DNA of 64,000 bases from a virus (lineage: Duplodnaviria > Caudoviricetes): positions 1 through 64,000 of the IMG/VR virus record IMGVR_UViG_3300028591_000019; one strand, given 5' to 3'. Positions within the stretch are counted from its first letter, which is position 1. Each line of letters starts with the position of its first letter. Below, in pieces: positions 8,868 through 54,132 of the stretch. The position numbers and the translations under genes are program-made. The notes beneath the pieces were generated by a model. It was not told where the DNA came from. It worked only from the letters and a program-made list of their open reading frames with translations, and ran no database searches.

Positions 8868-9596
8868 TTATTCCTCTTCCAGTTCCTTACTGTTCATCGA
8901 CTCGATAATCGATGTGAAATCGCCCTTCTTGTTTGCCTTCTTCGACAGATTGTTCAGAGCAACCACCAGTTCCCTTGACAGTTTCTTCTTCCCACTCTCG
9001 TTCGCTTCCATGAATCGCTTCGCAACCATAATCTGGTGTTCTCTGCAAAGTTTCGGATAAATCTCAAGGATTTTATCCCCCATCTCCACAATCTTTGCAA
9101 ACTGCTTCTTGCCGAGCGTTTCCCCTTCGGAATACTTCACGTTGTAGGCTTCACGCTCTTCGTCTGTCAGACCGTCCACCACGATAAGCCAACGATTGTC
9201 CAGATACCATCTGGTCTTCTCATCGAGCATATTCGTCAGTTCATTCTTCGGCACGAAGACTTCGCCAGTCTTTCCTACGATTCTTCCGTACTGACCACGG
9301 TCACCAAGGTAAACGATATTGTCATCGGCTACCTCTGCTTGCCACAGGAAGTGTACTTTCTCGCTAGACTCCGCAAGCCTTACAACTTGCGGTTGCATTG
9401 CCATCTTCTCCTGCAACTGGCTCAACTGCTTCATCAGCAGTTCGTTCTGCTCACGAAGAAGTTCGAGTTCGCTCTTTTGCTTCGGCTGTTCAGCCTGTTT
9501 CTTCGCTTCCTCTTCCTGCTTCTTCTTCGCTCTCGATTGAGCCATCTTCTCGGCAAAAGCGGCTTTCTCTTCTTCTGTCATTTGCTTCTTTGCCAT
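8868..9596 (-). CDS. Hypothetical head-associated protein
   Basis: Likely start MAKKQ at 9596 with an RBS; Lys/Glu-rich N-terminus; immediately downstream of the capsid gene. Confidence 0.5.
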   Translation of the reverse strand: MAKKQMTEEEKAAFAEKMAQSRAKKKQEEEAKKQAEQPKQKSELELLREQNELLMKQLSQLQEKMAMQPQVVRLAESSEKVHFLWQAEVADDNIVYLGDRGQYGRIVGKTGEVFVPKNELTNMLDEKTRWYLDNRWLIVVDGLTDEEREAYNVKYSEGETLGKKQFAKIVEMGDKILEIYPKLCREHQIMVAKRFMEANESGKKKLSRELVVALNNLSKKANKKGDFTSIIESMNSKELEEE

Positions 9597-10959: not shown

Positions 10960-11541
10960 TTAAGCGATGGGCTTCTCAGCACAGAGGTCGAGATAGCCAA
11001 AGCTTTCGGTCGTACCTTCAATGAACTTGCCCGTTCCACGGAGCGAGAAGTACAGACCACTCTGCGGGGCAGTAGCGGCGGGCGAAAGCAGACCGTCATC
11101 AATCGTGAAGAAGGTGTTGCTTCCTACTGTGCCGTCAACATTGCCCTCACCAAAACGATAGACGGACTCGCCATCGAAATCGATACGGGTGAAAGTGCAT
11201 TCTCTTCCTGCGGGTGCGGGAAGTCCAAGGGTGTTCGTTCCAACCGCATACTGACCGCCGAAAATCGGGTCAATAAGCAGGTTGACATCGTGAGTATTGC
11301 AAGCGTAAATAACATCGCCTGCACCAACGGTCGATGCCGCCGCATTCATATACCAAGTGTTCTCGTTCTTCACGTTTGCGAAACCTTCGCAATCGGTCTG
11401 ACCGTTACGAACGCAGAGCATACCCGCAGAGCAGATAGCGTCAGCGGAATCTTCTTGGTAACGTCCTGCGATATTGGCAAGGTCTTCAAAACGACCGTTC
11501 GTAATACGGGCTTCAAAAGCCGTCTTTGCGATATAAGCCAT
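10960..11541 (-). CDS. Head decoration/cement protein
   Basis: 193 aa, Gly/Ala/Thr-rich beta protein between scaffold and capsid genes. Confidence 0.55.
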   Translation of the reverse strand: MAYIAKTAFEARITNGRFEDLANIAGRYQEDSADAICSAGMLCVRNGQTDCEGFANVKNENTWYMNAAASTVGAGDVIYACNTHDVNLLIDPIFGGQYAVGTNTLGLPAPAGRECTFTRIDFDGESVYRFGEGNVDGTVGSNTFFTIDDGLLSPAATAPQSGLYFSLRGTGKFIEGTTESFGYLDLCAEKPIA

Positions 11542-27430: not shown

Positions 27431-27802
27431 ATGACAATCGGAGAACGTATTAAACTGAGAAGGGCTGAACTGAATATCTCGCAAGGAGAACTGGCGAGTG
27501 CGGTCGGCATGAAACATCAGACAAGCATCAGCAAAATCGAACTCGGACAACGAGGTGTCCCGCTCCATTATCTGGAAGCGATTGCCGAAAAGCTAAAGAC
27601 AACTCCCGACTATCTCCTTGGTCGGACGGATGACCCCGAAACAGGAGTTCCAAAATTTGTACAACAGTTTGAAGATAACAAGTTAGCAGAGATTAACGCA
27701 TTCGCTACTTTGCTGTCTGAAGAGAACAGGGAAACCGTAGTTTCGTATATGAGGTTCTTGTATCAAGAACAGATGAGGGCTTCTTATGCAGACAAAGCGT
27801 AA
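27431..27802 (+). CDS. Second XRE-family HTH regulator
   Basis: MTIGERIKLRRAELNISQGELASAVGMKHQTSISKIELG...TTPDYLLG. Confidence 0.88.
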   Translation: MTIGERIKLRRAELNISQGELASAVGMKHQTSISKIELGQRGVPLHYLEAIAEKLKTTPDYLLGRTDDPETGVPKFVQQFEDNKLAEINAFATLLSEENRETVVSYMRFLYQEQMRASYADKA

Positions 27803-28886
27803 GAACGAAGCAAGTTGGGACGGCAAGCGTTGGAGCATTAAGGTTCAGTCGAACGGCACACGCAAGTCGTTCTATTCTTCTATAGAGGGGAAAAAGGGAA
27901 AGATAGACTGCGAGAAGAAAGCAGACGATTGGCTCGTAAACAGTCTTAACGGGGAGAACCTCAAGGTAGAGAAACTCTTTGACGATTTTATCGAGGACAT
28001 GAAACAGCTTGATAAAAGCTATAAGCAGTTTGAATCTATCGGTAGGTCGAGAATCGTTCCGTCTATCGGGAAGAAAAAGATAAGTACTGTAACGGAACAG
28101 GATTTGCAGAACATTATACATAAGGCGAACCGAGACGGTCTGTCTAAGAAGACACAGCGCAACATCCGTGGCTGTATCTCTTCGTTCTTCAAGTACTGTC
28201 GAAAACGGAAGTGTACAACGCTTATCCCTTCCGATATAGAAATTCGCCGTACCGCTCCGACATACGAAAAGAAATCGCTTCAGCCCGAAGAGATTAAGAA
28301 GGTCTTCTCGTCCGAAATCACAACGTATAACGGAAGAGACATCGAGGACAGATATATCTACCTCTACCGCTTCGGCATCTGTACAGGACTCCGTCCAAGC
28401 GAACTGCTCGGTCTGCAATGGAAAGATATCTCTGGCGATATTATAACGGTACACCGTGGGATAAACAAAGAAGGGAAGATAACGTCTGGCAAGAACGAGA
28501 ACGCAAAACGGACATTTAAAATGTCTGCTACCGCTGAAGACGCTCTCCTCATGCAGAAGAAACAATTGAAAGAAGAACACATCGCTTCCATCTGGGTGTT
28601 CCCTTGGCGTGACGGAACTTCTACTTCTCTTGATAACTACTATAAAGCTTGGAAGAGATACGCAAAACGGAACGGCATTACGCCCGTCTCTCTGTATGAA
28701 CTGTCAAGACATACCTTCGTAAGTCTGAACAAGCATATGCCTATCGAACTGCTGAAAGCAATTGTAGGACATAGTACTACAATGTCTACAACGGAGACAT
28801 ACGGACACTTTTTGGAAGGTGAAATGGAACTGGCTCAGTCCTATCAAGATAAGGTCATGAAAGACCTTTTCAGCGGGAAATCTTGA
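27786..28886 (+). CDS. int: Tyrosine integrase
   Basis: TGLRPSELLGLQWKDI, GKNENAKR, YELSRHTF, IVGHS, TETYGH; N-terminal arm-binding-like segment; adjacent attP. Confidence 0.92.
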   Translation: MQTKRKNEASWDGKRWSIKVQSNGTRKSFYSSIEGKKGKIDCEKKADDWLVNSLNGENLKVEKLFDDFIEDMKQLDKSYKQFESIGRSRIVPSIGKKKISTVTEQDLQNIIHKANRDGLSKKTQRNIRGCISSFFKYCRKRKCTTLIPSDIEIRRTAPTYEKKSLQPEEIKKVFSSEITTYNGRDIEDRYIYLYRFGICTGLRPSELLGLQWKDISGDIITVHRGINKEGKITSGKNENAKRTFKMSATAEDALLMQKKQLKEEHIASIWVFPWRDGTSTSLDNYYKAWKRYAKRNGITPVSLYELSRHTFVSLNKHMPIELLKAIVGHSTTMSTTETYGHFLEGEMELAQSYQDKVMKDLFSGKS

Positions 28887-37716: not shown

Positions 37717-38448
37717 TATTTTTTTACCTACCCCTTATCTGGCATTTACATTTCCCGTACCGATTCTTTACCTACCCCCCGCCTACCCTTTACATATCCT
37801 TTATCCAATGTCAATCTATACATTTACATTATTCTTATAGGACATTTCGTCATATTTTATCTAAGACATTTTTAAGACTATTTTGCAGAGCTTTATAGGG
37901 GAAGGATAGCATAGTGCTGATGCGATTTTCGCCCTATGCATAGACTGCAAAATATCCCCCATATGCTGATATTGCTAGTATTTTAAACGGATTCCTATCC
38001 CCATTGACACATTGTCATTATACATATGCATTACTTTATACATTTTCTTTCGGTTTACTTTTCAATCGTTAACGTGTTGATAGTTAACTAGTTAACAATC
38101 GCCTAGAGTGGCGGATTATAGCAGTTTTTCCCCATTATATATATTATTCTTGTATTATATATATATTATATATATCTCATAGATATAAGAATATTCTATA
38201 CAAGGATATGCATAAGAAATGAATAAAGGTAAAAAATGAAATGAACATAAATTGAAATTGCAAAAAAAGAAGAAAAAAGTTAAAAAAATTTTTGTTTTGA
38301 GATGGGATTGTTTGCGGATAGCTATACACGCGTGCGCGAGGATTGCACTTTTCAAGCGGATACAGTCGAATTGGATTTGATAAACTGTCATTGTCGCCAA
38401 GCCGAACAGGCTTAAATTCAAGACGGCAAAAAAGAAAGGAATAAAGCA

Positions 38449-39345
38449 ATGAAACAGAACGTAAAGAAAGCAACCGCAAAGAAAGTCACTAACAGCGACA
38501 GAAAATCAATCATGTTGACCGCACACAAACTGAGCAATCACGGAAAATCGATGCAGTGGAAAACGGCACTCAAAACGGCATGGAAAGCGTTTAAAGGTGG
38601 ATGCCTTGAATCCGTAACCGATATCGAATCGGCAATGATTTACGAGCTTGGCAAGGCAAGCGAAACGAAATTAATCGAAAGAATCGCTCATAAGTATTTG
38701 AGCAAACTGGTCAGAGAATCAAAATCTATGAAAGATGAAAACGGCGAGCAGGTCGATAATGAGTTGTCAGTATCCGCACAAAAAGCGTTTTACCACTGGG
38801 GATTTTATGGATTTGAGAACGAAACCTATCGGGATTACGTTCAGAATATCGCATTGGCTACAATGCGATTAATCCGCAAGCCCGACTATATCCAGTCTAA
38901 AAACGACTGGAGGATAGAAAACGGATATGAACCATTGACTATTGTCAATCTTATTTGGAATGGGGCTTCCATCGGCTGGAATATGACCATGAAGCAAATT
39001 TATAATCGCATGAGAAAAAACGCAAAAACTCATAAGTATGAATATTTCAATGTTGATTCACTGGATAGAACTGCAATAAACAGTGACGGTGAAGAGTTTA
39101 ACCAGTACGATACTATCGACGCCGAATCCGTAAAAGGTCAGTACGGCTTTTCTAGCAAGACAGAATACTGGATGGTATGGGATGCAATCAAATCCGTTTG
39201 CAAGGATGAAAAGGAGCTTGCAATTGTCGCATACAGGAAAAACGGAAACAAAACACAGAAACAAACTGCTGACTACATGGGATTGTGTCAGCAGAACATT
39301 GCTAGGACATTGAAACAGATTGCAGAAAGATATCACGCAATTTAA
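38449..39345 (+). CDS. Phage sigma-70-like factor (region 4 HTH at C-terminus)
   Basis: C-terminal KELAIVAYR...TQKQTADYMGLCQQNIARTLKQI fits sigma region 4; SLD motif precedes it (VDSLD); RBS gaaagga. Confidence 0.65.
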   Translation: MKQNVKKATAKKVTNSDRKSIMLTAHKLSNHGKSMQWKTALKTAWKAFKGGCLESVTDIESAMIYELGKASETKLIERIAHKYLSKLVRESKSMKDENGEQVDNELSVSAQKAFYHWGFYGFENETYRDYVQNIALATMRLIRKPDYIQSKNDWRIENGYEPLTIVNLIWNGASIGWNMTMKQIYNRMRKNAKTHKYEYFNVDSLDRTAINSDGEEFNQYDTIDAESVKGQYGFSSKTEYWMVWDAIKSVCKDEKELAIVAYRKNGNKTQKQTADYMGLCQQNIARTLKQIAERYHAI

Positions 39346-39362
39346 TAAATGAATGGATGGAC

Positions 39363-39397
39363 AAAAAGACCGCCCACACATCGGGCGGTCTTTTTTT
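39363..39397 (+). terminator. Strong intrinsic terminator after the sigma-like gene
   Basis: GACCGCCC-acacatc-GGGCGGTC followed by T7. Confidence 0.9.
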
Positions 39398-39444
39398 ATG
39401 CCTAAAAATCAAAAAATCTTTTTTCATAAAAAAATAATTTTTTG

Positions 39445-39471
39445 TGTAGTAAATCGGGATTTTGTGACTCT
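39445..39471 (+). promoter_or_regulatory. Repeat motif copy 1, TGTAGTAA-N11-GTGACTCT
   Basis: Exact consensus in an intergenic position. Confidence 0.8.
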
Positions 39472-39480
39472 GTTATCAGT

Positions 39481-39543
39481 GCAAGGCAAGCAAGCGAACG
39501 CAAGCAAGCGAACGCAAGCGAACGCAAGCAAGGCAAGCGAACG
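39481..39543 (+). repeat. GCAAG/GCAAGCGAAC microsatellite-like tandem repeat
   Basis: gcaaggcaagcaagcgaacgcaagcaagcgaacgcaagcgaacgcaagcaaggcaagcgaacg; contains no T. Confidence 0.9.
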
Positions 39544-39569
39544 AAAAACAGGAAGGATGGAAAAATAAA

Positions 39570-39734
39570 ATGACAATGTATGAAATTCTGAAAGAAATTG
39601 AAACAGTAAAAATCAAGATGAAAAATCATCGTTCAGAGTGGTTCGGGATGCTTGGTACAGAGTGGGAAAAAGCGGACTGGATGAAAAAACGCAATCGCTT
39701 AAATGAACTGCTCGCAATGCTTGCAAGAGCATAA
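39570..39734 (+). CDS. Small hypothetical protein (54 aa)
   Basis: Hand-translated MTMYEILKEIETVKIKMKNHRSEWFG..., with RBS ggaagga. Confidence 0.5.
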   Translation: MTMYEILKEIETVKIKMKNHRSEWFGMLGTEWEKADWMKKRNRLNELLAMLARA

Positions 39735-39785
39735 TGCAAGCGAAAAACACACCATGCAGAAAATGAAAAAAATTTTTTCGTGCAG

Positions 39786-39812
39786 TGTAGTAAAACAAAA
39801 AATCGTGACTCT
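39786..39812 (+). promoter_or_regulatory. Repeat motif copy 2
   Basis: TGTAGTAA-aacaaaaaatc-GTGACTCT. Confidence 0.8.
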
Positions 39813-39848
39813 GGTATTAATGACAAGATGAGAAAGGAAAAAAAGAAA

Positions 39849-40127
39849 ATGAACATGAAAATCAAAATCCTGCAAGCTAATATTTCAACACCGTACAAAT
39901 TCCTGTCGTACAAAACTGCACAGCGTGAAAACTTTTCCCTGTTAGATTACGATTGTGTTTTTGATGGAGAAGTTGACGTAAATAGCCTTGACGATATTTT
40001 TGCAATTTTCAACACGGATGAAAGACCGAATCCGATGACAATGCATTCATTAAGCGTTTCCGATTTAGTCGTGACGAAAGACGGCACGTTTTATTGCGAC
40101 AATTTCGGATGGAAAAAAATTCTATGA
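39849..40127 (+). CDS. YodL-like domain protein
   Basis: LDDIFAIFN...MHSLSVSDLVV...FYCDNFGW. Confidence 0.8.
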   Translation: MNMKIKILQANISTPYKFLSYKTAQRENFSLLDYDCVFDGEVDVNSLDDIFAIFNTDERPNPMTMHSLSVSDLVVTKDGTFYCDNFGWKKIL

Positions 40128-40372
40128 AAGGAAATGAAAAAATGAAAGACGGAAAATTAATTGGGAAAGCTGTTATCTTGAAAGGCTTTAACGGTAGTCG
40201 GTCGGATGACTGGGTGATTATAAAGGATTATGACGGGAAATATTACTGGGCATCTTTCGGCGATGATAAAATATGCATTCCGTTTTACAGAAATGAATTT
40301 ATCGTGCCGAGAGATAACATAAAACGTGAATTTCGGAAATGCAGTAACCAAAAATAATATATTATTTCATGC

Positions 40373-40399
40373 TGTAGTAAAACAGAAAATCGTGACTCT
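40373..40399 (+). promoter_or_regulatory. Repeat motif copy 3
   Basis: TGTAGTAA-aacagaaaatc-GTGACTCT. Confidence 0.8.
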
Positions 40400-40416
40400 G
40401 TAAAGGATGAACAGAT

Positions 40417-40445
40417 AAGCACTCAAAAAAATGAGTGCTTTTTTG
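40417..40445 (+). terminator. Intrinsic terminator between motif 3 and the GP88-like gene
   Basis: AAGCACTCA-aaaaaa-TGAGTGCTT followed by a T-run. Confidence 0.7.
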
Positions 40446-40494
40446 TTTGCTCTTTGCGGATGCAAAAAACAAAAAATAATGGAGGCACAAAAAA

Positions 40495-41265
40495 ATGACC
40501 ACAAAAAAATCAATCTATGAATCATTCGGAATCCAGTTTGACGGTGAAAAAATTCTTTCCCCGATGGGAGCGATTCGTCCCCTGTTGAAAAATGGCAACA
40601 CGAAAGTCGGAAAGAACGTGTACACGTTTTCAATCTTGCCTACAAACAAAATGTTTAATGTTGATGGCATAGAAATGAAAGGAACGTGTCCATGCACTTG
40701 CAAAGATTGCTACGGCACAAAAGGATGCTGTGCATATGATAGCTCTGTCGCAAGCTATGCAAGGAATACAATTCTCGTGCGGAAACATCTTTCCTTTGTG
40801 CGTGATGCAATCATGGCACAGATTCTTGCGGATAAAATCCGTACGGTGAGAATCCATGCGGTCGGTGATTTCGATGGAAATGCAGAATATGTGGAGATGT
40901 GGAAAGACATAATCCGCAAGAATCCAAACGTGCAGTTTTGGACATATACAAAGTTTGCTCAGTTTGGGAATGCATTCGATGAACTGCCAAACGGAAACAT
41001 TGTAAAGTCTGTTATTCCGAAAATCGGATTCAATTTCGGGGAATGCGGATATGTAATCGATACATATCGGTACTTGAAAAGTATTGGGGAAGATGTGTAT
41101 GTGTGCAGATGCGGAATTGACGATAATCAGCACTGCACACACTGCAAACATTGCAGTACACACAAGTATGTTCTGTTCGTCATCCATGGAAACGGATATC
41201 GTGCAGAAAAGGATGCACGATATGCAGAACTGGTGGAACTGATTGAGTCGCAGGATAGGGAATGA
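40495..41265 (+). CDS. GP88-like protein (Cys cluster, radical-SAM-related)
   Basis: GNTKVGKNVYTFSILP, GTCPCTCKDCY, VRIHAVGDF, FWTYTK. Confidence 0.75.
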   Translation: MTTKKSIYESFGIQFDGEKILSPMGAIRPLLKNGNTKVGKNVYTFSILPTNKMFNVDGIEMKGTCPCTCKDCYGTKGCCAYDSSVASYARNTILVRKHLSFVRDAIMAQILADKIRTVRIHAVGDFDGNAEYVEMWKDIIRKNPNVQFWTYTKFAQFGNAFDELPNGNIVKSVIPKIGFNFGECGYVIDTYRYLKSIGEDVYVCRCGIDDNQHCTHCKHCSTHKYVLFVIHGNGYRAEKDARYAELVELIESQDRE

Positions 41266-41286
41266 AAAATTCCCTATCTTTTTTTG
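41254..41286 (+). terminator. Intrinsic terminator after the GP88-like gene
   Basis: GATAGGGAAT-gaaaa-ATTCCCTATC followed by T7. Confidence 0.8.
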
Positions 41287-41293
41287 AATGCAG

Positions 41294-41320
41294 TGTAGTA
41301 ATTTGCGATTTTGTGACTCT
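41294..41320 (+). promoter_or_regulatory. Repeat motif copy 4
   Basis: TGTAGTAA-tttgcgatttt-GTGACTCT. Confidence 0.8.
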
Positions 41321-41613
41321 GTTATGTGTGGAAAGGATGAAGAAATGAATATGACGATTGAGAGAAAAGCAAAACTGTACGACGGCAGATGTATGGATGT
41401 TTTCGGACTGACGGAAAAAATGTCGACTGAAGAAAAGGCAAGAAAATTCGATACGCTTATAGCTTTGGCGATTATGGCAAACAGTGGCGATGAAGGTATC
41501 GATGTCGTTGGATGCATTTCCAAATTTGAGGATTTCGGCATGACTAGGTCTGAAATCAACGATGTATTGCGTAAAAGGTTCTTTGCTAACTGAAATAATA
41601 TATTATTTCGGGA

Positions 41614-41640
41614 TGTAGTAAAACGCAAAAATGTGACTCA
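41614..41640 (+). promoter_or_regulatory. Repeat motif copy 5 (variant)
   Basis: TGTAGTAA-aacgcaaaaat-GTGACTCA. Confidence 0.78.
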
Positions 41641-41922
41641 TGAAGGGGTAGTATATCCAATTTTAAGAATGGAGAGGTGAAAATCTATGTTCGGAATGAA
41701 GAAAACTGCAAAGAATGATGGGAAAAAGGCTTGTCTGATGCTCGTGAATTGTGGGTATGGCTTGTGTGGCTTTGAAGATGATTCTCATGCGTATGCGATT
41801 TATGAAAACCGATTTACTGGAAAGCAAATCCGTTTTTGCATGGATGACGCAACATATGAACCGATTGATAATGCAAGAATCGTGCGAAGCTGTTTTGCAC
41901 GATGAAAAAAATTTATTTTCGA

Positions 41923-41949
41923 TGTAGTAAATCGTGAAATTGTGACTCT
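41923..41949 (+). promoter_or_regulatory. Repeat motif copy 6
   Basis: TGTAGTAA-atcgtgaaatt-GTGACTCT. Confidence 0.8.
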
Positions 41950-42588
41950 GATATAAATGCAAACAAACGAAATCAATGAAAGGATGGAATTTGAACCATG
42001 ATGATGAAGAGATTTTACTTGAACGGATGCTGTGTCGATGATGCGGTCGTTGAAAAGCATACTACACGCTATGTGAAAACCGAAAGCGGTAAATCGTGGA
42101 GAAAAACAGATGAAGAAACCGAAACCATAACAGCAAGGCAGTACTGCAACATTGTGGAGGCTGTTCCGTTCTTCCGTAATCTTGGGGGCAAGGAAATCGT
42201 AAGCAAAGGATATACCTATTACGGATATATACCGATTCAGATTACAAGCATCTCACCCGACAGGAACGCAAAGCACGTTTACCAGTTCAGTTTTAAGCTG
42301 AACTGATTTTTTAATTATGGAGATGTGAAAAATGAATCGTGCGATTTACAGACCGATGTTTAGCCGTTTGCTGTGTGCGGTGCTGATTGATATCGAGGAA
42401 ATTTGAAAGGATGGTGCTGTGGAAATGTTTGTCGAAACGCTAAGTGAAGCGAGGAAACTCGCAAAGGAAATCAACGGGACATACCGCAAGGTTGATAGCG
42501 GATGGTTGGTTCTTTCGTGGGCTGAATATCATGTATGGATTAACCAAAAATGACAAACTGGATGCATGAAAAAAATATTTTTTGAACG

Positions 42589-42615
42589 TGTAGTAAATTT
42601 GGAAAATGTGACTCT
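42589..42615 (+). promoter_or_regulatory. Repeat motif copy 7
   Basis: TGTAGTAA-atttggaaaat-GTGACTCT. Confidence 0.8.
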
Positions 42616-42973
42616 GATATGAACGCATTAAGTGAAAGGAGAATGATGTATGACTGAAAAATATATGCCCAAAGTTGGAGAAAAAGTGACCCTGTGCAAT
42701 TGGTACTGTGCTACGAAAACTCCGTACACAGTTATCAAGGTAAGCAAGTCTGAAGTAACTGTGCAGGAATGCGAACTTCTGTTCTGTGGTGTTCGGCACT
42801 ACGATACTATTGCGGACGAAATCCGTGAGAATCCTAACGGACGGACGGCAACTCTGCGGTGGAGTCCGAAGCGTGGCTGTTGGATGGAGAGTCCTGTCCG
42901 TTCGTGGTCTGACCGAGCGGTGTTTGGCAAGTGGGAACACGAACCCTATCTTAACTAAGGATGGTGATTTGAA

Positions 42974-43345
42974 ATGTTACAGGATGAAAATGCATTTGCA
43001 GAGAATCCGCAGGCAATGCGTGTTCTTGTCAAGTCTTTCAAGGACAAGGTAAAGACTTTGAAAAAAATTCATCATAATGCACTGATGACGCACAACAATC
43101 CGCAGAAAGTTATCGATGAGTTTGTCGATGCTGTCGGATATGAAAATGCCAAGAATGTTATCGCAAATTTGGTAAATGCGAGAGCGAAATGGGACGGAAG
43201 AATCTCTCCGAAAAATAAAGAATGGGCAAGCAATCTTGCGGACATCGACCGAGAAGTAATCACCTGCATATGTTATGCCGATGATGCGATTCACTCCGCA
43301 CATCTTGACCAACTTTGCGACTACATGAGAAGAAAGGAAGTGTAA
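42974..43345 (+). CDS. DUF3849-like protein
   Basis: IANLVN...WDGRISPKNKEWA...IHSAHLDQLCDYMRR. Confidence 0.55.
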   Translation: MLQDENAFAENPQAMRVLVKSFKDKVKTLKKIHHNALMTHNNPQKVIDEFVDAVGYENAKNVIANLVNARAKWDGRISPKNKEWASNLADIDREVITCICYADDAIHSAHLDQLCDYMRRKEV

Positions 43346-44739
43346 ATATGCCCGAGAAAGTATGGAGAATCACATTCGAGAAGAACGGCAGAGAATACTG
43401 GACAGCCTTGCGTGAATCGACAGCGGAAAGTGCTGTTGCACAGTTCATTGAATGGAACAAAGACGCAAAAGTTTTGACTGTAAAGGAGATGTAAACATGG
43501 AAAGGATGTACCCCTGTGATGCAAGCGGAATGTGTCCGTATGAAACATTCGATAATCCAGAAAGGATGTATTTCTGCCGTGACCATTGCGGTCTTGGTGT
43601 AGATGAATCAGATGAGCAGTACATTTGGGACGATGAAGAAAGTGAGGATGATGAATAATGATGTTGAAAGTAATGGATTTATGCAAGCAAATTCCAAAGA
43701 TGCGTGTGCAGATTTGTAACGCATCCACATTGGAAGTCCTGTTTGAAGGTGTCATTGAAGATTGTCCGTATCGTATTTGCGACATGGATATCGAAAAGGT
43801 TGAAGCGCAGTTCGTAAACGGTGTTGACTATCTTATTCTTGCAGAATGAAAGGAGAATGAAGCAATGTATTGCGAAAGAAAAAGAAATGTAAACTTGTCG
43901 GTAAGTTTTGAAATCCAGTTGGCAGATGTTATCCGATTGATAACTGCCAGTTTGGTGTGCGTTTATTATTCTGATGAGTTCGGGGATTCTAACTTCTTTG
44001 AAGCAAACGGTGAAGGAGAACTTCGCAAAAAGGCAAAAGAAGCCAATGTCCTTGATGCAACAGTAAACAGTATCGGCAACTTGAATGGGAAAATAGTCAT
44101 CCTTTGCGATAAAAAGTTGCAGACACTATCTGAAGCTTCCATTGATATAGATGTATGAAAGGAGAATGAAGCCATGGCAAACAGTTTCAGAAAATATATC
44201 ATGACGGATTACAAAGAGGTTATCAAGAAAATGAAAAAGATTGGTGCGGAGAACATCCACGGAATCAGCGGAGAACATCGGGCATTGAATATGGAAACGA
44301 AAGAATGGAAACCATATTATACAATACATTACAACAAACGTGCGGAGTTTGAAATCAGTCCGTCCGTGTTGGACAAACTCGTTGAACTTGGTGTGCTTGT
44401 AAAAGAATGAATGGGGGTGCTGAGATGGGCAGGCGTAGCCGAGTGTGTAAATTTCGGAACAAACTCTTCCAGTACGATTTCGATAAATGCATGGTGTACT
44501 GGGTGAGCAAACCCACTAAATACATACTGGAAGATAACGAGGAGTGGATGTCAGAACATGGATATCCACTCTTCCCTATTAATGAAGATGGATACATGGA
44601 TGTCAAAGGCATCGGTCTTTCCGAGATGAATTGGAAGGACAAAGAAGCAAGAAATGAGTACCTTGAAATGTGGTGTGATGAACTGGATGAAGAAACTCGC
44701 ATTCTCGCAAAAGAATATGAACTATGGGGGTGAAAAATA

Positions 44740-45042
44740 ATGGAGAAAAAGATGTATGAACTGAACGGATACAAGATATATATCGAGAAGACAAAATATG
44801 AATACAATGGACGGCTTGCCGTGCAAGCATACATTGTGGAAGATGATGGATGGGTCGAACCTTATGGCACTATCACAGTCAATCTTCCTAACGAGCAGAT
44901 AACCGATAAGGACTGCGGATTTGTTGATGAAAACAATATGCCGTTCATTTCCGAATGGCTTGAAGAAAATGGACTAGCCGAAATTACTGGCAGGATTGGT
45001 ATGAGCGGTTACTGCTTCTATTCTGAAATGAGATTCAAATAA
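44740..45042 (+). CDS. DUF4313-like protein
   Basis: NGRLAVQ...EPYGTITVNL...GFVDENN...WLEENGLAE...SGYCFY. Confidence 0.75.
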   Translation: MEKKMYELNGYKIYIEKTKYEYNGRLAVQAYIVEDDGWVEPYGTITVNLPNEQITDKDCGFVDENNMPFISEWLEENGLAEITGRIGMSGYCFYSEMRFK

Positions 45043-45062
45043 AAAAATATTTTTTGGGATAG

Positions 45063-45089
45063 TGTAGTAATTTCCAAAATCGTGACTCT
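45063..45089 (+). promoter_or_regulatory. Repeat motif copy 8
   Basis: TGTAGTAA-tttccaaaatc-GTGACTCT. Confidence 0.8.
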
Positions 45090-45125
45090 GTATACAACGA
45101 ACAAAAAATGAGAGGAGAAAAATGT

Positions 45126-46019
45126 ATGAACGTATATGAGATTGTTACAGACCGCATCGTGAAAGAACTTGAGAACGGACAGATTCCGTGGAAGAAGCCT
45201 TGGGTCGGCACGGAATACGCATGGGGAAGAAACAACGGAAAGTTCTACTCCATTCTGAATCAGTTACTGGTCGAAAAGAGCGGTGAATATGCTACTTTCG
45301 GAAAGATTCAGAAAGATGGTGGCAAGGTTAAGAAAGGTGCAACGCACAAAGACATCTTCTGTTGGGGGATGCGAGAGTCCAAAACAGAAAAGGACAAGGA
45401 TGGAAAGCCAAAGATGATTCCATACTTGAAATGGTGGCAAGTGTTCAACATCAAGGAAGACACCGACCTAGATGTTAAATATCACAAGGAACTGGTGCAG
45501 ACATTCGATACTGCTCCAATCGAGGAGATTGACCGCATCATTAATGATTATGCGGGGCGGAGCGGTGTGAAGTTCATCACCGATAAGGGATGCGACCGTG
45601 CCTACTACTCCCCCACTGACCACACGATTCATCTTCCGAGCATCGAACAGTTTAAGAATGTTGCCCTGTATTACAGCACAAAGTTCCATGAGATGATTCA
45701 CAGCACAGGGCATAAGTCCTTGCTGAATCGGTTTGAAAAGGGACAGACAAAGTTTGGGAGCGAGGTCTATTCCAAAGAGGAACTAGTCGCAGAGATTGGA
45801 ACGGCTTGTATTCTGAATCGGTTGGGAATCGAAACGGATGATTCGTTCCGCAACAGCACAGCCTATGTGCAGAACTGGGCAAAGCATCTCAAGGCAGACA
45901 GCAAGATGATTGTGTCGGCATCCAGTAAAGCAGAGAAAGCCGTGAAGTTAATCTTCAACGAACTGGACGAGAAAGAAAACAATAATGATGCCACCGAAAT
46001 GGTGGCATCTGTTGCATAA
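45126..46019 (+). CDS. ardC: ArdC-like antirestriction protein (ssDNA-binding N-domain plus zincin metallopeptidase)
   Basis: VYEIVTDRIVKELENGQIPWKKPW, GGKVKKG, WQVFN, AYYSP..HTIHLP, FHEMIHSTGH, EELVAEIG. Confidence 0.9.
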   Translation: MNVYEIVTDRIVKELENGQIPWKKPWVGTEYAWGRNNGKFYSILNQLLVEKSGEYATFGKIQKDGGKVKKGATHKDIFCWGMRESKTEKDKDGKPKMIPYLKWWQVFNIKEDTDLDVKYHKELVQTFDTAPIEEIDRIINDYAGRSGVKFITDKGCDRAYYSPTDHTIHLPSIEQFKNVALYYSTKFHEMIHSTGHKSLLNRFEKGQTKFGSEVYSKEELVAEIGTACILNRLGIETDDSFRNSTAYVQNWAKHLKADSKMIVSASSKAEKAVKLIFNELDEKENNNDATEMVASVA

Positions 46020-46242
46020 GAAAGGAGAAAAATATGTTTGGTGCAATGACGGTCGAACAGTTCCTGTATTTCGCAATGGATGATTGCGAGGTTGGAATCT
46101 TTAACCTTGACAGCGGAGATGAAGCTGTCTTCAAAACAATCGATGAAGCTGTAGCAAAGTACGGCAACTGTGATGTGTGTTCGTGGGATGTCGAGGACGG
46201 ACACATTTGCTTGAACATTGAAGAATAAGGATGGTGAAATGC

Positions 46243-46569
46243 ATGACTGATATTAAGAATTTAACTCCGCACTCTATCGTGGTAATCCTGTCGGATGACA
46301 TCCGATACGTTATCACTCCGAGCGATTCTGTCGCTCGTTGTTCCTCTTCCACCGAGGTCATCGGTGAGGTGAATGGAGTTCCGCTGACTCGCACAATTTA
46401 CGGTGAGGTTGTCGGACTCCCACAACCGAAAGAGAACACGATTTATATCGTGTCCACTCTTGTTGCACAGGCTTGTCCCGACAGGGATGACTTGTTTATC
46501 CCGAATGAAATCGTCCGTGACACAAACGGCAAGGTTATCGGATGCAAATCGTTCGGAAGAGTTCATTAA
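46243..46569 (+). CDS. NLTPH-motif protein, candidate Crn4-like ring nuclease
   Basis: KNLTPHSI...PSDSVAR...GEVVGLPQP..YIVSTLVA...RDDLFIP...VRDTNGKVIGC; family match is from recall only. Confidence 0.5.
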   Translation: MTDIKNLTPHSIVVILSDDIRYVITPSDSVARCSSSTEVIGEVNGVPLTRTIYGEVVGLPQPKENTIYIVSTLVAQACPDRDDLFIPNEIVRDTNGKVIGCKSFGRVH

Positions 46570-47219
46570 AGGGGATGAATAAAATGCCAAATGGAAAATG
46601 GTTAATCACATATCGAAAACGATTTGGTCGGAAAGAATATATGGCAATTATATATAAGGATATTACATTGCAGGAAGCAATCAAACGGTTTGAAGAGATA
46701 TATCCTTTCGCTATAATCACATCAATCGTGTAAGGGGGAACGAGCATGAATAAACATGGCGAACTGAAAATCATGACGGCAAAGGAACTGGTAGACACGT
46801 TCATCCTTGGAGATGCACAGGAAGGGATGGATTATGCTGTGCTTGACTTCACAAAGAAAGAACTGAACGGCATTCCTGCGAAATATCTTGATATCGAAAA
46901 AGTATACGAGGATGCATGGGGATGGAACGGCATTCGAGTGATGGAAAGTCCGCTCGGTACGGAAGAAACCATCATCGTTATCGGACATTACGGTTCGATG
47001 ATTTCGGATTGCATGGCTATCAATGCAGAGAATCTTACCTACGATTGCTACGGCATCACAGAACGTATTCATAACACAATTTACAACTGCGGTGGTGAGG
47101 AATTGAACGATGACACGCTTCTGATTGTCGAGATGCACGATGCGATGTATAAGCGTGCAGAGGAAGATGCGAAATGCGAAAGAATCCTTGCAGATGCCAA
47201 GAAAAAAATGTGTATGTGA

Positions 47220-47246
47220 TGTAGTAAACCACCAAATCGTGACTCT
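47220..47246 (+). promoter_or_regulatory. Repeat motif copy 9
   Basis: TGTAGTAA-accaccaaatc-GTGACTCT. Confidence 0.8.
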
Positions 47247-47272
47247 GTATAGAGCGAAAGGAGCAAAAACAA

Positions 47273-48520
47273 ATGGAAGAAAAGAAAAACGAAAACATTT
47301 ATGCAATTTGGGAATGCCACATGGATGAGCTTCGCAAAAAAGTAAAGACCATACAGAAGAAATGCGAAAAATACGGATGCGACTTCACGTTTGAAGAAGT
47401 TGGCGAGGAAATCCGTGAGGTAACAGACAGAGAACTGGTTGACCCTAACACTGGGAAGCCAGTTGTCCACCATCTCAAGTTCATCCTCGTCCATGCGGAA
47501 GGAACTGCTGTCATTAACGGATGGGAATTCGTTGCGTCAGTTGAACACACGGAAAACGGAAACATTTTCCGCAAAGCGATGACGGATGTTGAAATTCCGC
47601 AGAGATATAGATGCTCTGACCCATACTGTGAGCATTGCAACAGCCACAGAATGCGGAAAGGGACGTTCATCGTTCGCAATGTTGAGAGCGGTGAGTTCAA
47701 ACAAGTCGGACACAACTGCTTGAATGATTACACGCACGGAATGTCCGCATCGTTTGCTTCTTTTAATGCATCTCTGAAGTCCGTGTTTGAAGAAGCACAG
47801 AATCAACCGATTAGCGGTGTCAGTTGGTTCGCAAAAAGCTTTGGGACGAGAGAAGTCCTCTGCTACTCCGCAGAAACGATTCGGCACTTTGGTTATTCCA
47901 AGTCTGAAAACGGATATGATAGCACAAAAGAACGTATGCGTAGGTTCTTTGACTGTCAGCATGGTGGTCTCTTTCCTAGCAAACTAAACGATGAAGTTCG
48001 TGAGCAGATGGAGAGCGTTGGCTTCAATCATGAATCCGATGGAGCGAACAAGATGGTAGATGATGCTCTTGCGTGGCTTAACGAACAAGAGGAAAAGAAT
48101 GATTACATTCACAACCTCAAAGTAGCTTGCTCGTTGGATTACACAGCGTACAACAAGTTCGGACTTCTTGTTTCGCTATTCCCAACTTACACAAGAGAGA
48201 TGGGATTGTATGAAAAGAGAGCAAAAGAAACGGAGCAGGGAAAATCTTCCGACTATGTTGGAAATGTCGGAGATAAGGTTGATGTTGATGTGGACAGCAT
48301 CAAGTGCGTTACTTCTTGGGAATCTTCTTATGATGGATACCACACATCGGTAACGTACATTTGGAAAATCATAGGCAAAGATGGGAACGTGTTCACTTGG
48401 AAGACAAGCAAGTGGATGGACGAGGAGAATCCACCTAGGTTAATCAAGGGAACAGTAAAAGAACACAAAGAGTTCCGTGAAATCAAACAGACAGAACTTA
48501 CACGGTGCAGGATTGCATAA
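47273..48520 (+). CDS. Conserved phage protein with Zn-finger and C-terminal OB-fold-like domain
   Basis: YCEHCNSHRMRK...KQVGHNCLNDY; C-terminal YVGNVGDK...DGNVFTWKTS. Confidence 0.55.
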   Translation: MEEKKNENIYAIWECHMDELRKKVKTIQKKCEKYGCDFTFEEVGEEIREVTDRELVDPNTGKPVVHHLKFILVHAEGTAVINGWEFVASVEHTENGNIFRKAMTDVEIPQRYRCSDPYCEHCNSHRMRKGTFIVRNVESGEFKQVGHNCLNDYTHGMSASFASFNASLKSVFEEAQNQPISGVSWFAKSFGTREVLCYSAETIRHFGYSKSENGYDSTKERMRRFFDCQHGGLFPSKLNDEVREQMESVGFNHESDGANKMVDDALAWLNEQEEKNDYIHNLKVACSLDYTAYNKFGLLVSLFPTYTREMGLYEKRAKETEQGKSSDYVGNVGDKVDVDVDSIKCVTSWESSYDGYHTSVTYIWKIIGKDGNVFTWKTSKWMDEENPPRLIKGTVKEHKEFREIKQTELTRCRIA

Positions 48521-48540
48521 GAAAGGATGGTGCTTTGAAA

Positions 48541-51500
48541 ATGTCGGAAGCATATGACGCATTGTTTTGGATTTCGAGCGGTACGATGGGCATTCTGATG
48601 AGAGAGAAAACAGGAATCAAGGATAATCGGTACGATACGATAGATGATTTCCGCATCTTCGTTATCAAAGAAGCGCAGAAACTGGATACCCCCAACACAA
48701 AATCTTGGTTGGAACTATTCAACAGAATCGACTTTACGAAATATAAGAAAGGATGTGAATGATATGACATCTTACGATACAGAAATCAGATGCAGACTTT
48801 ATACGCTCCTCGACCGTTACGAGGAACTGGACGGACTTTTTACTTGGGAGTTCATGAACAAAATCGCAGATGAATTTAGGTGGAGCAAATGGGAAAGACT
48901 GGATATGAGCATTGATGATGCATTGGAAGAGTATGCGGATGACAATATAGATAAATGGATTCGCCAGTTGAAAGGTAACAACCTCTACAGGGTCAAGGTT
49001 GTGCTTGAGTTTGATGTTGAATCCGCAGACAAACTGGATACGGTTGTCAGCAACGTAAAGGAACTGTTCTACGATAAGTCGGTGGAAGATTACGGTGCGA
49101 TTAAGGATGCTCGTTTAGTGAATGCGGTTGGAAAGGAAGTGGATGAGTGATATGAAACTTGCTGAAAAATTCATACAGTTGCTTCTGAAGTGGAAGATTG
49201 TGGAGTTCGTACATGATGATGGCGAACTTTATTTTTGGGAAGAGGAGAAATAAATCATGGGATACTTCAAATGGAAGCCGAGCAAGGCACAAAAAGAAAT
49301 ATTCAAGAATAAGATGTGCGAGATAGAAAAGTTCTGTGAAGAAAACAATATCTCGCACTCTTCTTCTTATGACAGTTACTACTTTGAAATTAAAGGGCAA
49401 AAGTATCGTGTCAGTAATCATTCGCCAGAGAGCAGTCCCTACCATTGGGGAAGAGATGCCGACACACGTTATATCAACGCAAGCAAACTCCGCATCATTC
49501 AAATCTACATTGATTTGATGTATGGAAGCAAACTGGACGGGCATGGATATGTCATTGAATAAGAAAGGAGAATGAATATGGGCTATAAAATGTCTGACTT
49601 TCGTAAAATGTTTGCTGACAAAGTTTCGGAGTATCTCAACAGGGGATATATGTTTAACGAAAGAATTCGTAGTCTTGGCAATGAGGTTGTAAAGGTTGAT
49701 TTGTTTAAAGGAAACGAATGCGTTCGCGTTGCCATTTTCCGTGAACACGAAAGCAATTGGAAGTCAAGCAACAGATATGACTGGTGGACGCTTGAACACG
49801 TTTCAATCGTTGTAGGGAAATATAATGACCCGACAGGATGGAACGATAGGCTTGAAATTGTAGAGAGAAAGGATTTCTATAGCAAGGGCGAACTAAATGA
49901 TGGGTATTTTGTTGACAATAAAGATGAAGCAATCGAAATGTGCAGGAAACATTTCAGAAGACTTGATGCAAGGCATTTCCATGCGGAAAAAATAATATAT
50001 TCTGAAGATGTTAAGTCGATTGTGCTTCCGTTCGTCCGCAGACAGCCTAGGTGTGGCAGAAAGAAAGTCGAGGACATTGCTTCCGTTACGAAGTGTTCTA
50101 TCGATGAATACAACAGGTATATGTATTACAATGTCAGGCTTCATGACGGTAAAAACTTTCAGCTTATAGCTAGATGTAATTGATTAGATGGGGGTGAAAT
50201 TAAATGACGCTGTTTGAACTTTCAAAAGACCAAGTAAAGGAACTGCGTGAAGATTATCTCACACAGCATTTCAACAGCTTGTCGGAAACGGTCGATGACG
50301 TCACGGATGAGATGCTTATCGAGGAATATGGAAGCACAGACTTCTCCAACGATGACTTCATGGCAAAGCCGAGAGAATGTGCTGACAACTATGAGGTGGC
50401 TGTCGATTTTGAAGAAACAGAATGGTGTGGCAATTGTGACCACGAGGTTACGTTGCATTGGGATATCCGTGAGAATGGCTTCCGTGCATACTGCCCTTAC
50501 TGTGGAAAGAGGTTAATGCTTTGCGATGCTTGTATGCATCGTTTTGGGGATATGCATGACAACTGGCAATCATGCAAGAACTGTCTGTTCAAGAATAAAG
50601 GATTTGCCAAAGATGATGTGTATGTATGGAACAAAAAATAATTTTCATCTTGGTGTAGTAATCCTCAGATTTGTGACTCTGTATACAGCGAAAGGATAGT
50701 GATACAGAATGAAAAATCATGGTCGGTTTCCAATTTGGTTTACTGGAACTCGCAGAACACACTGGAGAGTAGTTTGGCAAAAAGAAGACGGCACATGCTG
50801 GTGCAAATGGTACGGGCAGTTGATTGAAATAAACTGGGGTATTGCAATGTTCCGTACTGTTGAAAAGTATTAAAGGATGGTGATGTGAATGCCGAGAAAG
50901 AAAAAGACTGAGCCGAAGCAGACCGTCACGCATTCCAAGATGCGAACGCTTAACGAAATACTGGATGAGTTGGAAACATACAGGGCGAAATACGGAAATC
51001 GTCCTGTTGTTTCTTTCGGGGAAACAATGGGCGAATACAACGGAAAAACAAATCCTCATGTACTGCACGTTCGTGTAAGTGCGGATGAATGCAAGCCGAT
51101 TTACTTCGCTTCTACAAACGACAAAGTTAGAAAGGTGGTCGATTAATAATGGGTGCAATTATGGCGTATATTTTCCTGTTCGTGTTGGGGCTTCTGCTTT
51201 CATAAATAATGGGGTGCGAAACAATGGTCAAGATAGAACGAAAGAAAAAGACAAAAGAGTTTTATTGGGTGAATCGTGATGAAGGAACATTTTGTATGGA
51301 CGGAGAAGTACACAACTTATCCGAGTACGATTTGAATGAAGTGTTCCGAGGTTCTTGTTTAAATGATGGGGTTCTGGAGAAGCACTTCCGTGTTATTCAA
51401 CTGATGCGTGACATCGATGCGGATTGCTACTACACAAAGTACATGGACTTCACGAGTCCAGAAAAGGATTCACAATGTATCCAGTACAGATTCCTGTGCG

Positions 51501-52572
51501 GTAACGTCTTCGCATTGCACACAACAAAAGAATGCAAGCGGTTTTCCGAATTGCTTTCTCTTGTAGATGATTTCTGTGTGTGCGCTCCGCTTGAAGAGGA
51601 ACGTGCGAAAGAACATGGTAATCATATCCTATGTGTAGCATTCAGTATCAACAATGTATGGAAGAAAAGTAACCTTGACTACATCCGACAAGAGAGGAAG
51701 GAATACAAAGGCAATGACAAAGGCAGATATGATTAAGGTCAAGCGTCACGGAAAGCTTCTCGCAATCGATACGGTATGCGGATGGCAGTACTGGGAATAC
51801 GATGGCGCATTGTACTCTATCAATTCCGATGGCAATCCAGAACGGATGAGCATCTGGTGTTCGATGAGCAGACTGGATGGTCATCTGCATAGGCTGTGGA
51901 GAATCTGTGGGAAAAAGAAATTCACAGAATGTGATGATATGGTAATCGTAGACAAAGAAAGAATGTCCCAGTTCAGTTGGGCATAAGAGAAAGGAGAAAA
52001 ATAATATGGCAAAGCGTGGATTTAAAGATATATGTGACAAGTTGCAGAAAGCGCATAACATTCTTCTGGAAATTCTTGATGATGTGCAGGAGAAGCGTGA
52101 CGCAATCGATGACAAGACGATGGAGTACGACAGGGATTATACGGATGCAGAGCAGGAAGCAATGGATGCTCTTGATGAAATCGAATCAAGTGTTGATGAT
52201 GCTGTCACTTCTATCGAAGAAGCGATGGACGCTTGCGGATATTGAAAGGAGAATAATTCTATGGATAAGCAATACGATGTAAAGATTTTGCTCACAAAAG
52301 AAGATGGTTCGACATATGATTACGATGCAACGGTAGAGTTTAGCCACGAGGACAACGACTACGGCAACGGCTATCATATGGGTATTCGGTCGAAAGATGA
52401 GCCGTTCGGATTCGGCGTGTATGACATCAGATATGATGTCGAGTTCAGAAAAGACCAAATCCTTGAATGGTTAATGGGTTGGTACGAGAGCAGATTCAAT
52501 GGCAAGGGCGGAAGATGGGCAATCAAACGCTTCTCTATTGAAGTTAACGGCAATGTGAAAGAAGGGGCGTGA
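48541..52572 (+). other. Run of ~12 small hypothetical genes (end of motif-bearing block)
   Basis: ORFs include 48541-48762, 48773-49150, 49257-49562, 49572-50183, 50204-50641 (CxxC pairs), 50889-51146, 51224-51736, 52006-52245 and 52261-52572. Confidence 0.7.
50654..50680 (+). promoter_or_regulatory. Repeat motif copy 10
   Basis: TGTAGTAA-tcctcagattt-GTGACTCT. Confidence 0.8.
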
Positions 52573-52598
52573 TTAGCATGGTGGCTAGAATTTAAACA

Positions 52599-52627
52599 AT
52601 GCTTGATATCTGTCAAGCATATTTTTT
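52599..52627 (+). terminator. Intrinsic terminator closing the motif-bearing block
   Basis: ATGCTTGA-tatctg-TCAAGCAT followed by ATTTTTT. Confidence 0.65.
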
Positions 52628-52650: not shown

Positions 52651-52679
52651 TTGACGCATACATCACTATATGCTACAAT
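52651..52679 (+). promoter_or_regulatory. SigA-type promoter for the 52.7-60.1 kb gene run
   Basis: TTGACG-N17-(TG-c)TACAAT. Confidence 0.75.
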
Positions 52680-53163: not shown

Positions 53164-54132
53164 ATGTTGGATGCGAAACTTTTGAAAGCAAGAGATACCT
53201 ACCTCAAGAATTGCAGGACAAACGAGATGTCCGAAGGAACGGTAGAAAATTACAACCGTGTTCTCCGTCAGTACATGGATAGCATGGAAAGGAATGGACA
53301 CACAGAACCTACGATTCAATCCGTTGCGGATTGGAAGTTCGAGTTGATGGATGAGAACTCTCCGTATCATGTCAAGGTAACAACCGCTTCTGGATATATC
53401 AATATGCTGTCGGCATTCTTCGACTGGGCAAAAGCGATGGAACTCCTTGAAAAGAATCCTGTCCTGCCCACGCTTAAGCCGTCAAGGAAAGCGGTACGGA
53501 ATGAGATGAAAAGACCGTATGAACATCCGATGGATGAGATTGATTACGCACACATCGTGTACGGTGAAAGACCGAATCATGCAAAAGGAGAAACTTGGAA
53601 GCGCAACAAAGCAATGTACACAGTTCTCCTTACGACAGCGATTCGTAACAGCGAACTCCGCAGTCTCACGCTTGACGATGTCAACTTCGATGACGGATAC
53701 ATTACGATTCGTCACGGCAAAGGAGATAAGATGCGGTATGTTGCGTTCCCGAAAGTCGCACAGGATGCCGTGCAGGAATACTTGGACGATGGATACAGAC
53801 CCAAAGATATCCCGACCTCTGCCCCGCTCTTCGGTTCTAAAGGAAACCGTTTCGCAGACGGATGGCACGAAATCGACAGGCACACATTGTCTCAGCTTGT
53901 CGAGCGTCAAGTGCAGAGAATGACGGGCAAGGATGGAATCCGTTCTCACGCACTCCGTCATGCATCCGCTTCCATTATGTTGGACAAGAATATGTCGATG
54001 GAAGAAATTTCCTCTCTGCTTGGGCATGAAAGCGTAGCAACGACTGCCCTGTATGCCCAGAGACTTCGTCCGACTCTGCCGAGCGAACACGCAAACGATG
54101 TGTTCGGGTCTATCAAGCCTGTCGGTGCATAA
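53164..54132 (+). CDS. XerC/XerD-like tyrosine recombinase (second recombinase)
   Basis: RNKAMYTVLLTTAIRNSELRSL, HGKGDKMR, SHALRHASA, LLGHESVATTALY; the full R-K-H-R-H-Y catalytic set is present. Confidence 0.92.
   Translation: MLDAKLLKARDTYLKNCRTNEMSEGTVENYNRVLRQYMDSMERNGHTEPTIQSVADWKFELMDENSPYHVKVTTASGYINMLSAFFDWAKAMELLEKNPVLPTLKPSRKAVRNEMKRPYEHPMDEIDYAHIVYGERPNHAKGETWKRNKAMYTVLLTTAIRNSELRSLTLDDVNFDDGYITIRHGKGDKMRYVAFPKVAQDAVQEYLDDGYRPKDIPTSAPLFGSKGNRFADGWHEIDRHTLSQLVERQVQRMTGKDGIRSHALRHASASIMLDKNMSMEEISSLLGHESVATTALYAQRLRPTLPSEHANDVFGSIKPVGA

Follow-up and report, generated by a model that had tools for sequence, protein, structure and literature searches.

The gene at positions 38449–39345 (+ strand) of the DNA analysed here, bases 1–64000 (the window, 64,000 nucleotides, nt) of the 77,407-base viral record IMGVR_UViG_3300028591_000019, encodes a 298-residue protein, P0001, that is likely to be an alternative sigma factor of the phage, with ten promoters as its private regulon. 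The record has direct terminal repeats, as in a complete genome, and originates from a sheep gut metagenome. P0001 is best read as a strongly diverged phage representative of the sigma-70 family, with a two-domain layout like that of the extracytoplasmic function (ECF) sigma factors and a conserved N-terminal extension. A sequence-only reading of the window had proposed a phage sigma factor with its own promoter specificity driving the island downstream of its gene, and after the tests described below this is the best-supported proposal, given the matches of the protein to sigma models, its region-4 fold and the co-variation of motif and protein among relatives.

The predicted promoters are marked by a motif of two boxes, TGTAGTAA-N11-GTGACTC, which was searched for with up to two mismatches, the chance level being taken from dinucleotide shuffles. 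Exactly ten matches were obtained, all exact, all on the + strand and spanning 39.4–50.7 kb, against a chance expectation of 0.06 and at most one match in each of 100 shuffles. There is no further copy in the rest of the 77,407-base genome, none of the degenerate copies with one to three mismatches looks related, and on the + strand box 1 or box 2, taken singly, is found only within the ten motifs. By strand-aware gene calling all ten are intergenic, each facing a downstream gene or operon with a Shine-Dalgarno (SD) sequence, and for copies 1–10 the start codon lies 99, 37, 96, 25, 47, 49, 35, 37, 27 and 29 nt past the end of the motif, i.e. 25–50 nt in eight of them. Box 2 is followed by a T in every copy except copy 5, which has an A, an A-tract/T-tract is located 5–25 nt upstream of box 1, and a perfect A/T palindrome stands ahead of copies 3 and 5. 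The ten exact copies, their confinement to 39.4–50.7 kb, the T to A change, the two palindromes and the usual distance to the start codon had all been claimed in the sequence-only reading, and they are borne out by the mismatch-tolerant search over the complete genome and by the measured distances. When viral and prokaryote collections were scanned for the exact motif, every match was a solitary one, with no multi-copy set and no accompanying homologue of P0001.

Like sigma promoters, the motifs have two distinct boxes, a fixed spacing and a single orientation. Box 1 and box 2 are unlike each other and form neither direct nor inverted repeats, and two differing boxes without dyad symmetry are expected of a sigma promoter and not of a site for a dimeric regulator. 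In none of 29 promoters, taken from four lineages, does the SD core begin closer to box 2 than +11, and in nine its first base is at +11 to +14; transcription should therefore start within 10 nt of box 2, which would give box 2 with its T the role of the -10-like element and box 1 that of the -35-like element. The A/T tract upstream of box 1 is found where an UP element would lie. Downstream of box 2, TG-N-TAT occurs in five of the ten copies and TGTATA in three, and the relatives have TTTATA; these TATA-like bases are unlikely to be the -10 region, because the start would then fall on or past the SD sequences of those nine promoters. The motif-bearing gaps contain no -35/-10 pair of the sigma-A type, and promoter-like sites are no commoner there than in shuffles, with none located at the motifs. 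Box 2 and the bases that follow have what we take to be a loose likeness to the T7 promoter core. No gene for a single-subunit T7-type RNA polymerase is apparent in the genome, where the only open reading frames (ORFs) above 900 residues encode the tape measure and an unassigned protein of the tail module, and the PF00940 search was empty, with controls that were equally silent.

The strongest evidence for the sigma reading comes from the comparison of lineages, in which metagenomic contigs encoding P0001 homologues were fetched and scanned downstream of the gene. The contigs L009, L010 and L013, with 82–87% identity to P0001, have the same motif just past the terminator of the gene, and the recognition helix of their helix-turn-helix (HTH) reads QQNIARTL as in the window. 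The homologue in L011 is 55% identical, with the helix QQAIAERL, and is followed by nine copies of a motif in which box 2 is unchanged and box 1 is GGTTGTA, while L012 (48% identity, helix QQAISKRL) has four copies with the same GGTTGTA box 1 and a slightly variable box 2. In L014 (39%) there are twelve copies of AGGAATA-N12-GTGCTAC, and in L015 and L016 (35–39%) a fourth motif variant, and the helix differs again in each of these two groups. The most distant of these homologues, in L020 (23%, helix QQAIAKR), is accompanied by six copies in which box 1 is of the GGTTGTA type and box 2 is a new one. In the three lineages with a common box 2, the putative region 2.4 segment contains IGWN; it differs in the others. 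Co-occurrence of the motif with homologues of 38449–39345 had been set out beforehand as a check, and each lineage indeed has its own two-box variant; no multi-copy motif without a homologue turned up in the exact-motif scans. The sigma-like genes of L020 and L021 are each preceded by a TG-extended promoter of the sigma-A type, in keeping with a two-step cascade.

The genes behind the motifs lead to the same conclusion. The GP88 proteins of the window and L014 are 78% identical, the ArdC proteins 77% (window 45126–46019 against L014 9403–10308) and a 111-residue protein 91% (46234–46569 against 11118–11441), compared with 39% for the two factors, suggesting either a recent exchange of cargo or a much faster evolution of the factors. 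Each shared cargo gene bears the promoter type of the resident factor, and in front of ArdC the spacer is still similar in the two phages but both boxes have been replaced. Since similar cargo carries the promoter type of the resident factor, the motif tracks the sigma-like gene and not the cassette. The order of the genes differs among relatives at the motif boundaries: the first gene of the window block lies after GP88 in L011, and DUF4313, which precedes ArdC in the window, follows it in L014.

In NCBIfam all five matches of P0001 are to sigma models, all below threshold, with SigB/F/G at an E-value of 3.2e-6 (residues 197–294), SigE at 1.6e-5 and sigma70-ECF at 0.006. In the distant family member P0019 sigma models lead the seven matches, and P0019 matches positions 10–161 of the 165 in the sigma70-ECF model, which take in both regions 2 and 4, at an E-value of 1.6e-5. 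Profile alignment with hhalign gave 83% probability to region 4 of an annotated Bacillus phage sigma factor; with Escherichia coli RpoE region 4 was aligned in register, without significance. Searches of 5.8 and 1.8 billion proteins yielded about ten members of the P0001 family, together with weak C-terminal matches to proteins of 180–260 residues, some of which reach Pfam Sigma70_ECF. No match was obtained by megablast of 38449–42700 against phages and plasmids or by tblastn of P0001 against 72,556 plasmids, and tblastn against phages gave only non-significant matches, to annotated sigma factors. Searches for related loci in viral and metagenome collections yielded no more than a fragment of the same sequence. 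The P0001 family is missed by all curated models. Among 401 genomes from the order of a sheep-rectum Lachnospiraceae metagenome-assembled genome, searched for host-side homologues, there was no full-length homologue, and the four matches obtained were weak and C-terminal; in these four genomes (L183–L186) ORFs of about 241 residues align with the family profile solely over its linker and region 4, with E-values of about 1e-9, and may represent a related, shorter sigma-like family in prophages.

The structure of P0001 was modelled with AlphaFold2 from 18 sequences (mean predicted local distance difference test score, pLDDT, 72.7); a model from five sequences (pLDDT 49) was too poor and was left unused. 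The layout begins with an N-terminal part that is helical, basic and conserved, and continues with a helical, putatively region-2-like domain (about residues 120–190), a poorly modelled linker and a region-4 HTH (residues 233–298). With VIA-align residues 233–298 superpose on sigma region-4 structures, at best with Z 8.4 and a root-mean-square deviation of 2.5 Å over 64 residues, and the region-4 superpositions overall have Z of 8.4, 8.3 and 8.0 over 56–64 residues with deviations of 1.4–2.9 Å. The model thus has the region 4 of the sigma-70 family, 4.1 plus the 4.2 HTH, which in that family reads the -35 region. Whole chains of ECF, sigma-32 and phage sigma factors align to the model over 131–154 residues, or over 112–154 with sigma-B counted in, and a SigR region-2 fragment is aligned over 78 of its 78 residues with Z 5.8. 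The top 43 rows of a Foldseek search are all sigma chains, none of them significant (best E-value 0.15). Language-model and structure look-ups with the whole of P0001 lead to sigma-factor clusters with Sigma70_r2, and residues 1–232 alone retrieve viral clusters named 'putative sigma factor' with Sigma70_r2, eight of ten structural rows being sigma clusters. The sigma region-4 HTH seen in the sequence-only reading is thus recovered by NCBIfam, hhalign and the superpositions, and the N-terminal extension that this reading called unusual is conserved and comprises about 120 residues.

Several observations weigh against a sigma identity. No Pfam family is reported for P0001, a sequence search of the PDB with the family profile gave nothing meaningful, and a six-frame search of the genome for Sigma70_r2 (PF04542) or Sigma70_ECF gave no match. 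The best NCBIfam score of P0001 is 27 bits, compared with cut-offs of 42.9 to 348.6, and no curated cut-off was reached. For region 2, which in sigma-70 factors binds the beta-prime clamp helices and recognises and melts the -10 region, the argument comes from the structure and embedding look-ups, because Smith-Waterman alignments of the putative region 2 with RpoE and the Bacillus phage sigma factor were not above shuffles, and structural Z values of 7–8 can be reached by unrelated helical proteins. The distance between the boxes is below the 16–17 nt usual for ECF promoters. In the window no clear sigma-A promoter is found upstream of the sigma-like gene, which is preceded by a long non-coding region. 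One sheep-gut metatranscriptome run contained 45% of the sampled words, in short contigs of low depth and from both strands, and gives neither starts nor expression. The lineage-by-lineage co-variation of motif and protein among these syntenic relatives would also be compatible with another lineage-specific factor encoded beyond the ends of the short contigs.

P0001 might instead be an HTH activator recruiting the sigma-A RNA polymerase to promoters that have no -35 region, with the TG-N-TAT after box 2 serving as a weak extended -10. The significant sequence-level evidence mainly covers the C-terminal HTH, whose fold is common to activators of the LuxR/GerE type (these are among the VIA-align matches), the TATA-like sequences after box 2 are there in the window and in the relatives, and the upstream A/T tract would also suit activator-dependent promoters. 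However, if the -10 region spanned +3 to +8, transcription would begin near +14 to +17, which in nine of the 29 promoters coincides with the SD or lies beyond it, and the site is asymmetric. The best family matches are moreover to sigma models only, P0019 spans nearly the whole of the sigma70-ECF model including region 2, and residues 1–232 of P0001 retrieve sigma region-2 clusters without the help of the HTH. An activator is judged unlikely.

Two further explanations are considerably less probable than that. Plasmid p576, where repeated heptamer operators are common to ardC and further establishment genes (PMC6294495), offers the precedent for a repressor like Reg576 silencing ordinary host-type promoters through the motif, and the block also has an ardC gene; but the motifs neither overlap nor border on a -35/-10 pair of the sigma-A type, box 1 and box 2 form no direct or inverted repeat, and the adjacent protein resembles a sigma factor and not a ribbon-helix-helix repressor, leaving an operator role very improbable. 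Nor do the motifs seem to serve mainly in the exchange of cassettes, perhaps through the tyrosine recombinase encoded at 53164–54132, with promoter activity secondary or absent, an idea to which we give hardly any credence. This alternative had been raised in the sequence-only reading, and the part of it that stands is that promoter-led cassettes bounded by the motif are reordered between relatives. The motif has, however, no dyad symmetry or core-type layout as would be found in a tyrosine-recombinase site, its orientation is strict, its distance to the SD is constrained, and all copies in a genome change in step with the sigma-like protein. Homologous recombination between the repeated promoters suffices for the shuffling and is simpler than a dedicated site-specific system.

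With P0001 as a sigma factor, the sequence of events would be as follows. The host RNA polymerase with the housekeeping sigma factor would transcribe the sigma-like gene, and this transcript should stop at the terminator at 39367–39397. P0001 would then bind the host core RNA polymerase and direct it to the ten near-identical promoters, each consisting of an A/T tract resembling an UP element, the putative -35-like box 1 (TGTAGTAA), a spacer of 11 nt and the putative -10-like box 2 (GTGACTC, then T), from which transcription might start about 6–10 nt after box 2. In this way ten units over 39.5–52.6 kb, with about 34 small genes, could be switched on, and their products probably serve host takeover or counter-defence.

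All promoters in the following description are predicted from the sequence, and all features are on the + strand. Between the sigma-like gene and the first motif a putative intrinsic terminator (39367–39397) should end the transcript of the sigma-like gene, and a conserved equivalent of it is present in L014, L015, L016 and L020. Downstream of promoter 1 (39445–39470) are a leader in which 10-nt units are repeated in tandem (39486–39543) and a gene for 54 residues (39570–39734). The leader contains at least four tandem copies of a unit of 10–14 nt with the consensus GCAAGCGAAC, and similar repeats of the CGCAAGCG type are found after the first promoter in all lineages whose contigs extend to this point, i.e. 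L009, L012, L013, L014 (3200–3290) and L015; the array could be a binding array in RNA or DNA. Promoter 2 (39786–39811) should drive a YodL-like gene (39849–40127) and a gene for 71 residues (40142–40357). Promoter 3 (40373–40398) is separated by a leader hairpin with a T-run (40417–40440) from a gene of the GP88 family (40495–41265), which has a terminator at 41252–41280. The L011 orthologue has a hairpin at the same place (about 9460–9490) with another stem sequence, and the hairpin is possibly an attenuator or a short RNA. Promoters 4, 5 and 6 precede single small genes: promoter 4 (41294–41319) a gene for 82 residues (41345–41593) with an SD from +14 after box 2, promoter 5 (41614–41639), in which the next base is A and not T, a gene for 72 residues (41687–41905), and promoter 6 (41923–41948) a gene for 102 residues (41998–42306) with a terminator at 42283–42305.

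The remaining four promoters are located in front of operons. Promoter 7 (42589–42614) precedes the operon 42650–45042 with about ten small genes, including those for DUF3849 (42974–43345) and DUF4313 (44740–45042), and promoter 8 (45063–45088) the operon 45126–47219, in which the gene for an ArdC-N domain fused to a zincin metallopeptidase (45126–46019) is followed by four to five small genes. Promoter 9 (47220–47245), with an SD from +13, should drive the operon 47273–50641, encoding a 415-residue phrog_2319 protein and the products of six more genes, and promoter 10 (50654–50679), also with an SD from +13, the six small genes of the operon 50709–52572. The motif-driven block is closed by a terminator at 52599–52627, past which a sigma-A-type promoter with a TG extension is read at 52651–52679; both the bounding of the block by terminators and the return of a SigA promoter agree with the sequence-only reading. 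The same reading had called the block an anti-defence island, and this holds in part: ArdC is present, together with domains typical of polyvalent proteins and the leading regions of conjugative elements, but ArdC alone carries an anti-restriction annotation, and the other genes, of which the recognisable products are the YodL-like, GP88, DUF3849, DUF4313 and phrog_2319 proteins, have no anti-defence annotation.

The 77.4-kb genome looks like that of a temperate siphovirus-like phage. A CI-type repressor with an S24 peptidase domain and an integrase are encoded at 26.3–28.9 kb, the minus strand contains genes for DnaB, a replication initiator, RecT and a RecE-like exonuclease, and a portal protein, structural proteins with Ig domains and a tape measure are also encoded. 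The base skews invert at 38 kb, where the + strand block begins. Two tyrosine recombinases are present in this one phage, a classic integrase adjoining the repressor (27786–28886) and a XerC-like enzyme directly past the motif-driven block (53164–54132). Adjoining the tape measure on the minus strand is the gene for a 1060-residue protein (L017 11421–14603, corresponding to 71421–74606 of the genome) with no PHROG or Pfam matches. The long non-coding region before the sigma-like gene, 450–900 nt in these phages, harbours a conserved element, in the window at 38075–38200, that consists of GTTAAC repeats and then CCTAGAGTGGCG, followed by a very TA-rich stretch. It is found 5' of the sigma-like gene also in L011, L014 and L016, and might serve as an operator, an origin or a packaging site.

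Sigma factors with private regulons are of a kind already known from phages and plasmids. Bacillus phage SPO1 encodes middle and late sigma factors (PMC13401047), and for phage 7-11 a set of a sigma factor and its promoters has been inferred computationally (PMC4331800). As in these phages, a sigma-family protein is here predicted to redirect the host RNA polymerase to repeated phage promoters that have their own -35-like and -10-like boxes and precede a temporal class of genes. Unlike them, P0001 is in no curated sigma family and has a conserved N-terminal extension, the boxes are closer to each other, the phage is apparently temperate and siphovirus-like, and the predicted regulon is an accessory island and not the middle or late replication and structural genes. 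Plasmid pBS32 of Bacillus subtilis encodes SigN (ZpdN), a divergent sigma factor whose regulon is essentially confined to the plasmid and shares a promoter consensus (PMC6751061), and a mobile-element sigma factor with an element-confined regulon of this sort is what is predicted here. The SigN promoters have a -35 region of the TTTACG type and a -10 region of the GATATAAT type (Table 2 in PMC6751061). SigN activates itself, whereas no motif copy precedes the P0001 gene. A relationship between P0001 and SigN of pBS32 was considered and is ruled out by the lack of homology in the tblastn search against plasmids and by the differing promoter consensus.

For the co-regulation of ardC-type genes the nearest functional parallel is Reg576 of p576, a ribbon-helix-helix repressor with heptamer operators in four promoters including that of ardC (PMC6294495), and anti-defence genes are also gathered in the leading regions of plasmids (PMC11541004). 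In both cases, as is predicted for this block, ardC and neighbouring small genes of the establishment type are co-regulated through one repeated promoter element. The difference is that p576 uses a repressor acting on host-type promoters, while the block is in a phage and apparently under the positive control of a dedicated sigma-like factor. The domain repertoire described for the polyvalent proteins of phages and conjugative elements (PMC5512222) recurs in the regulon as ArdC-N with zincin, YodL, DUF3849 and DUF4313, and in the relatives as DarA_C, DUF3846 and LPD18. Unlike in the polyvalent proteins these domains come from individual small genes, with a predicted private promoter for each class, and the words 'sigma' and 'promoter' are both absent from PMC5512222.

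New in this case are the protein family, the promoter architecture with closely spaced boxes, the accessory regulon and the co-evolution throughout the regulon. By means of the motif about 34 genes, most of them unknown, are marked out beside ArdC as a single co-regulated group, which provides a regulatory handle on counter-defence and host-takeover genes, much as a conserved promoter motif has been used for archaeal viruses (PMC11065993). A broader proposal, on which our judgement is evenly balanced, is that this is a rare and hitherto unrecognised family of phage sigma factors in which both boxes are rewritten throughout the regulon in step with the factor, giving mutually distinct sigma/promoter pairs, each in control of a shuffling pool of counter-defence and host-takeover genes of the leading-region type in temperate gut phages. 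The five or six lineages, with their variants of box 1 and box 2 and the matching changes in the HTH helix, constitute a natural experiment on sigma specificity and the co-evolution of a regulon, and they could provide orthogonal sigma/promoter pairs for Bacillota.

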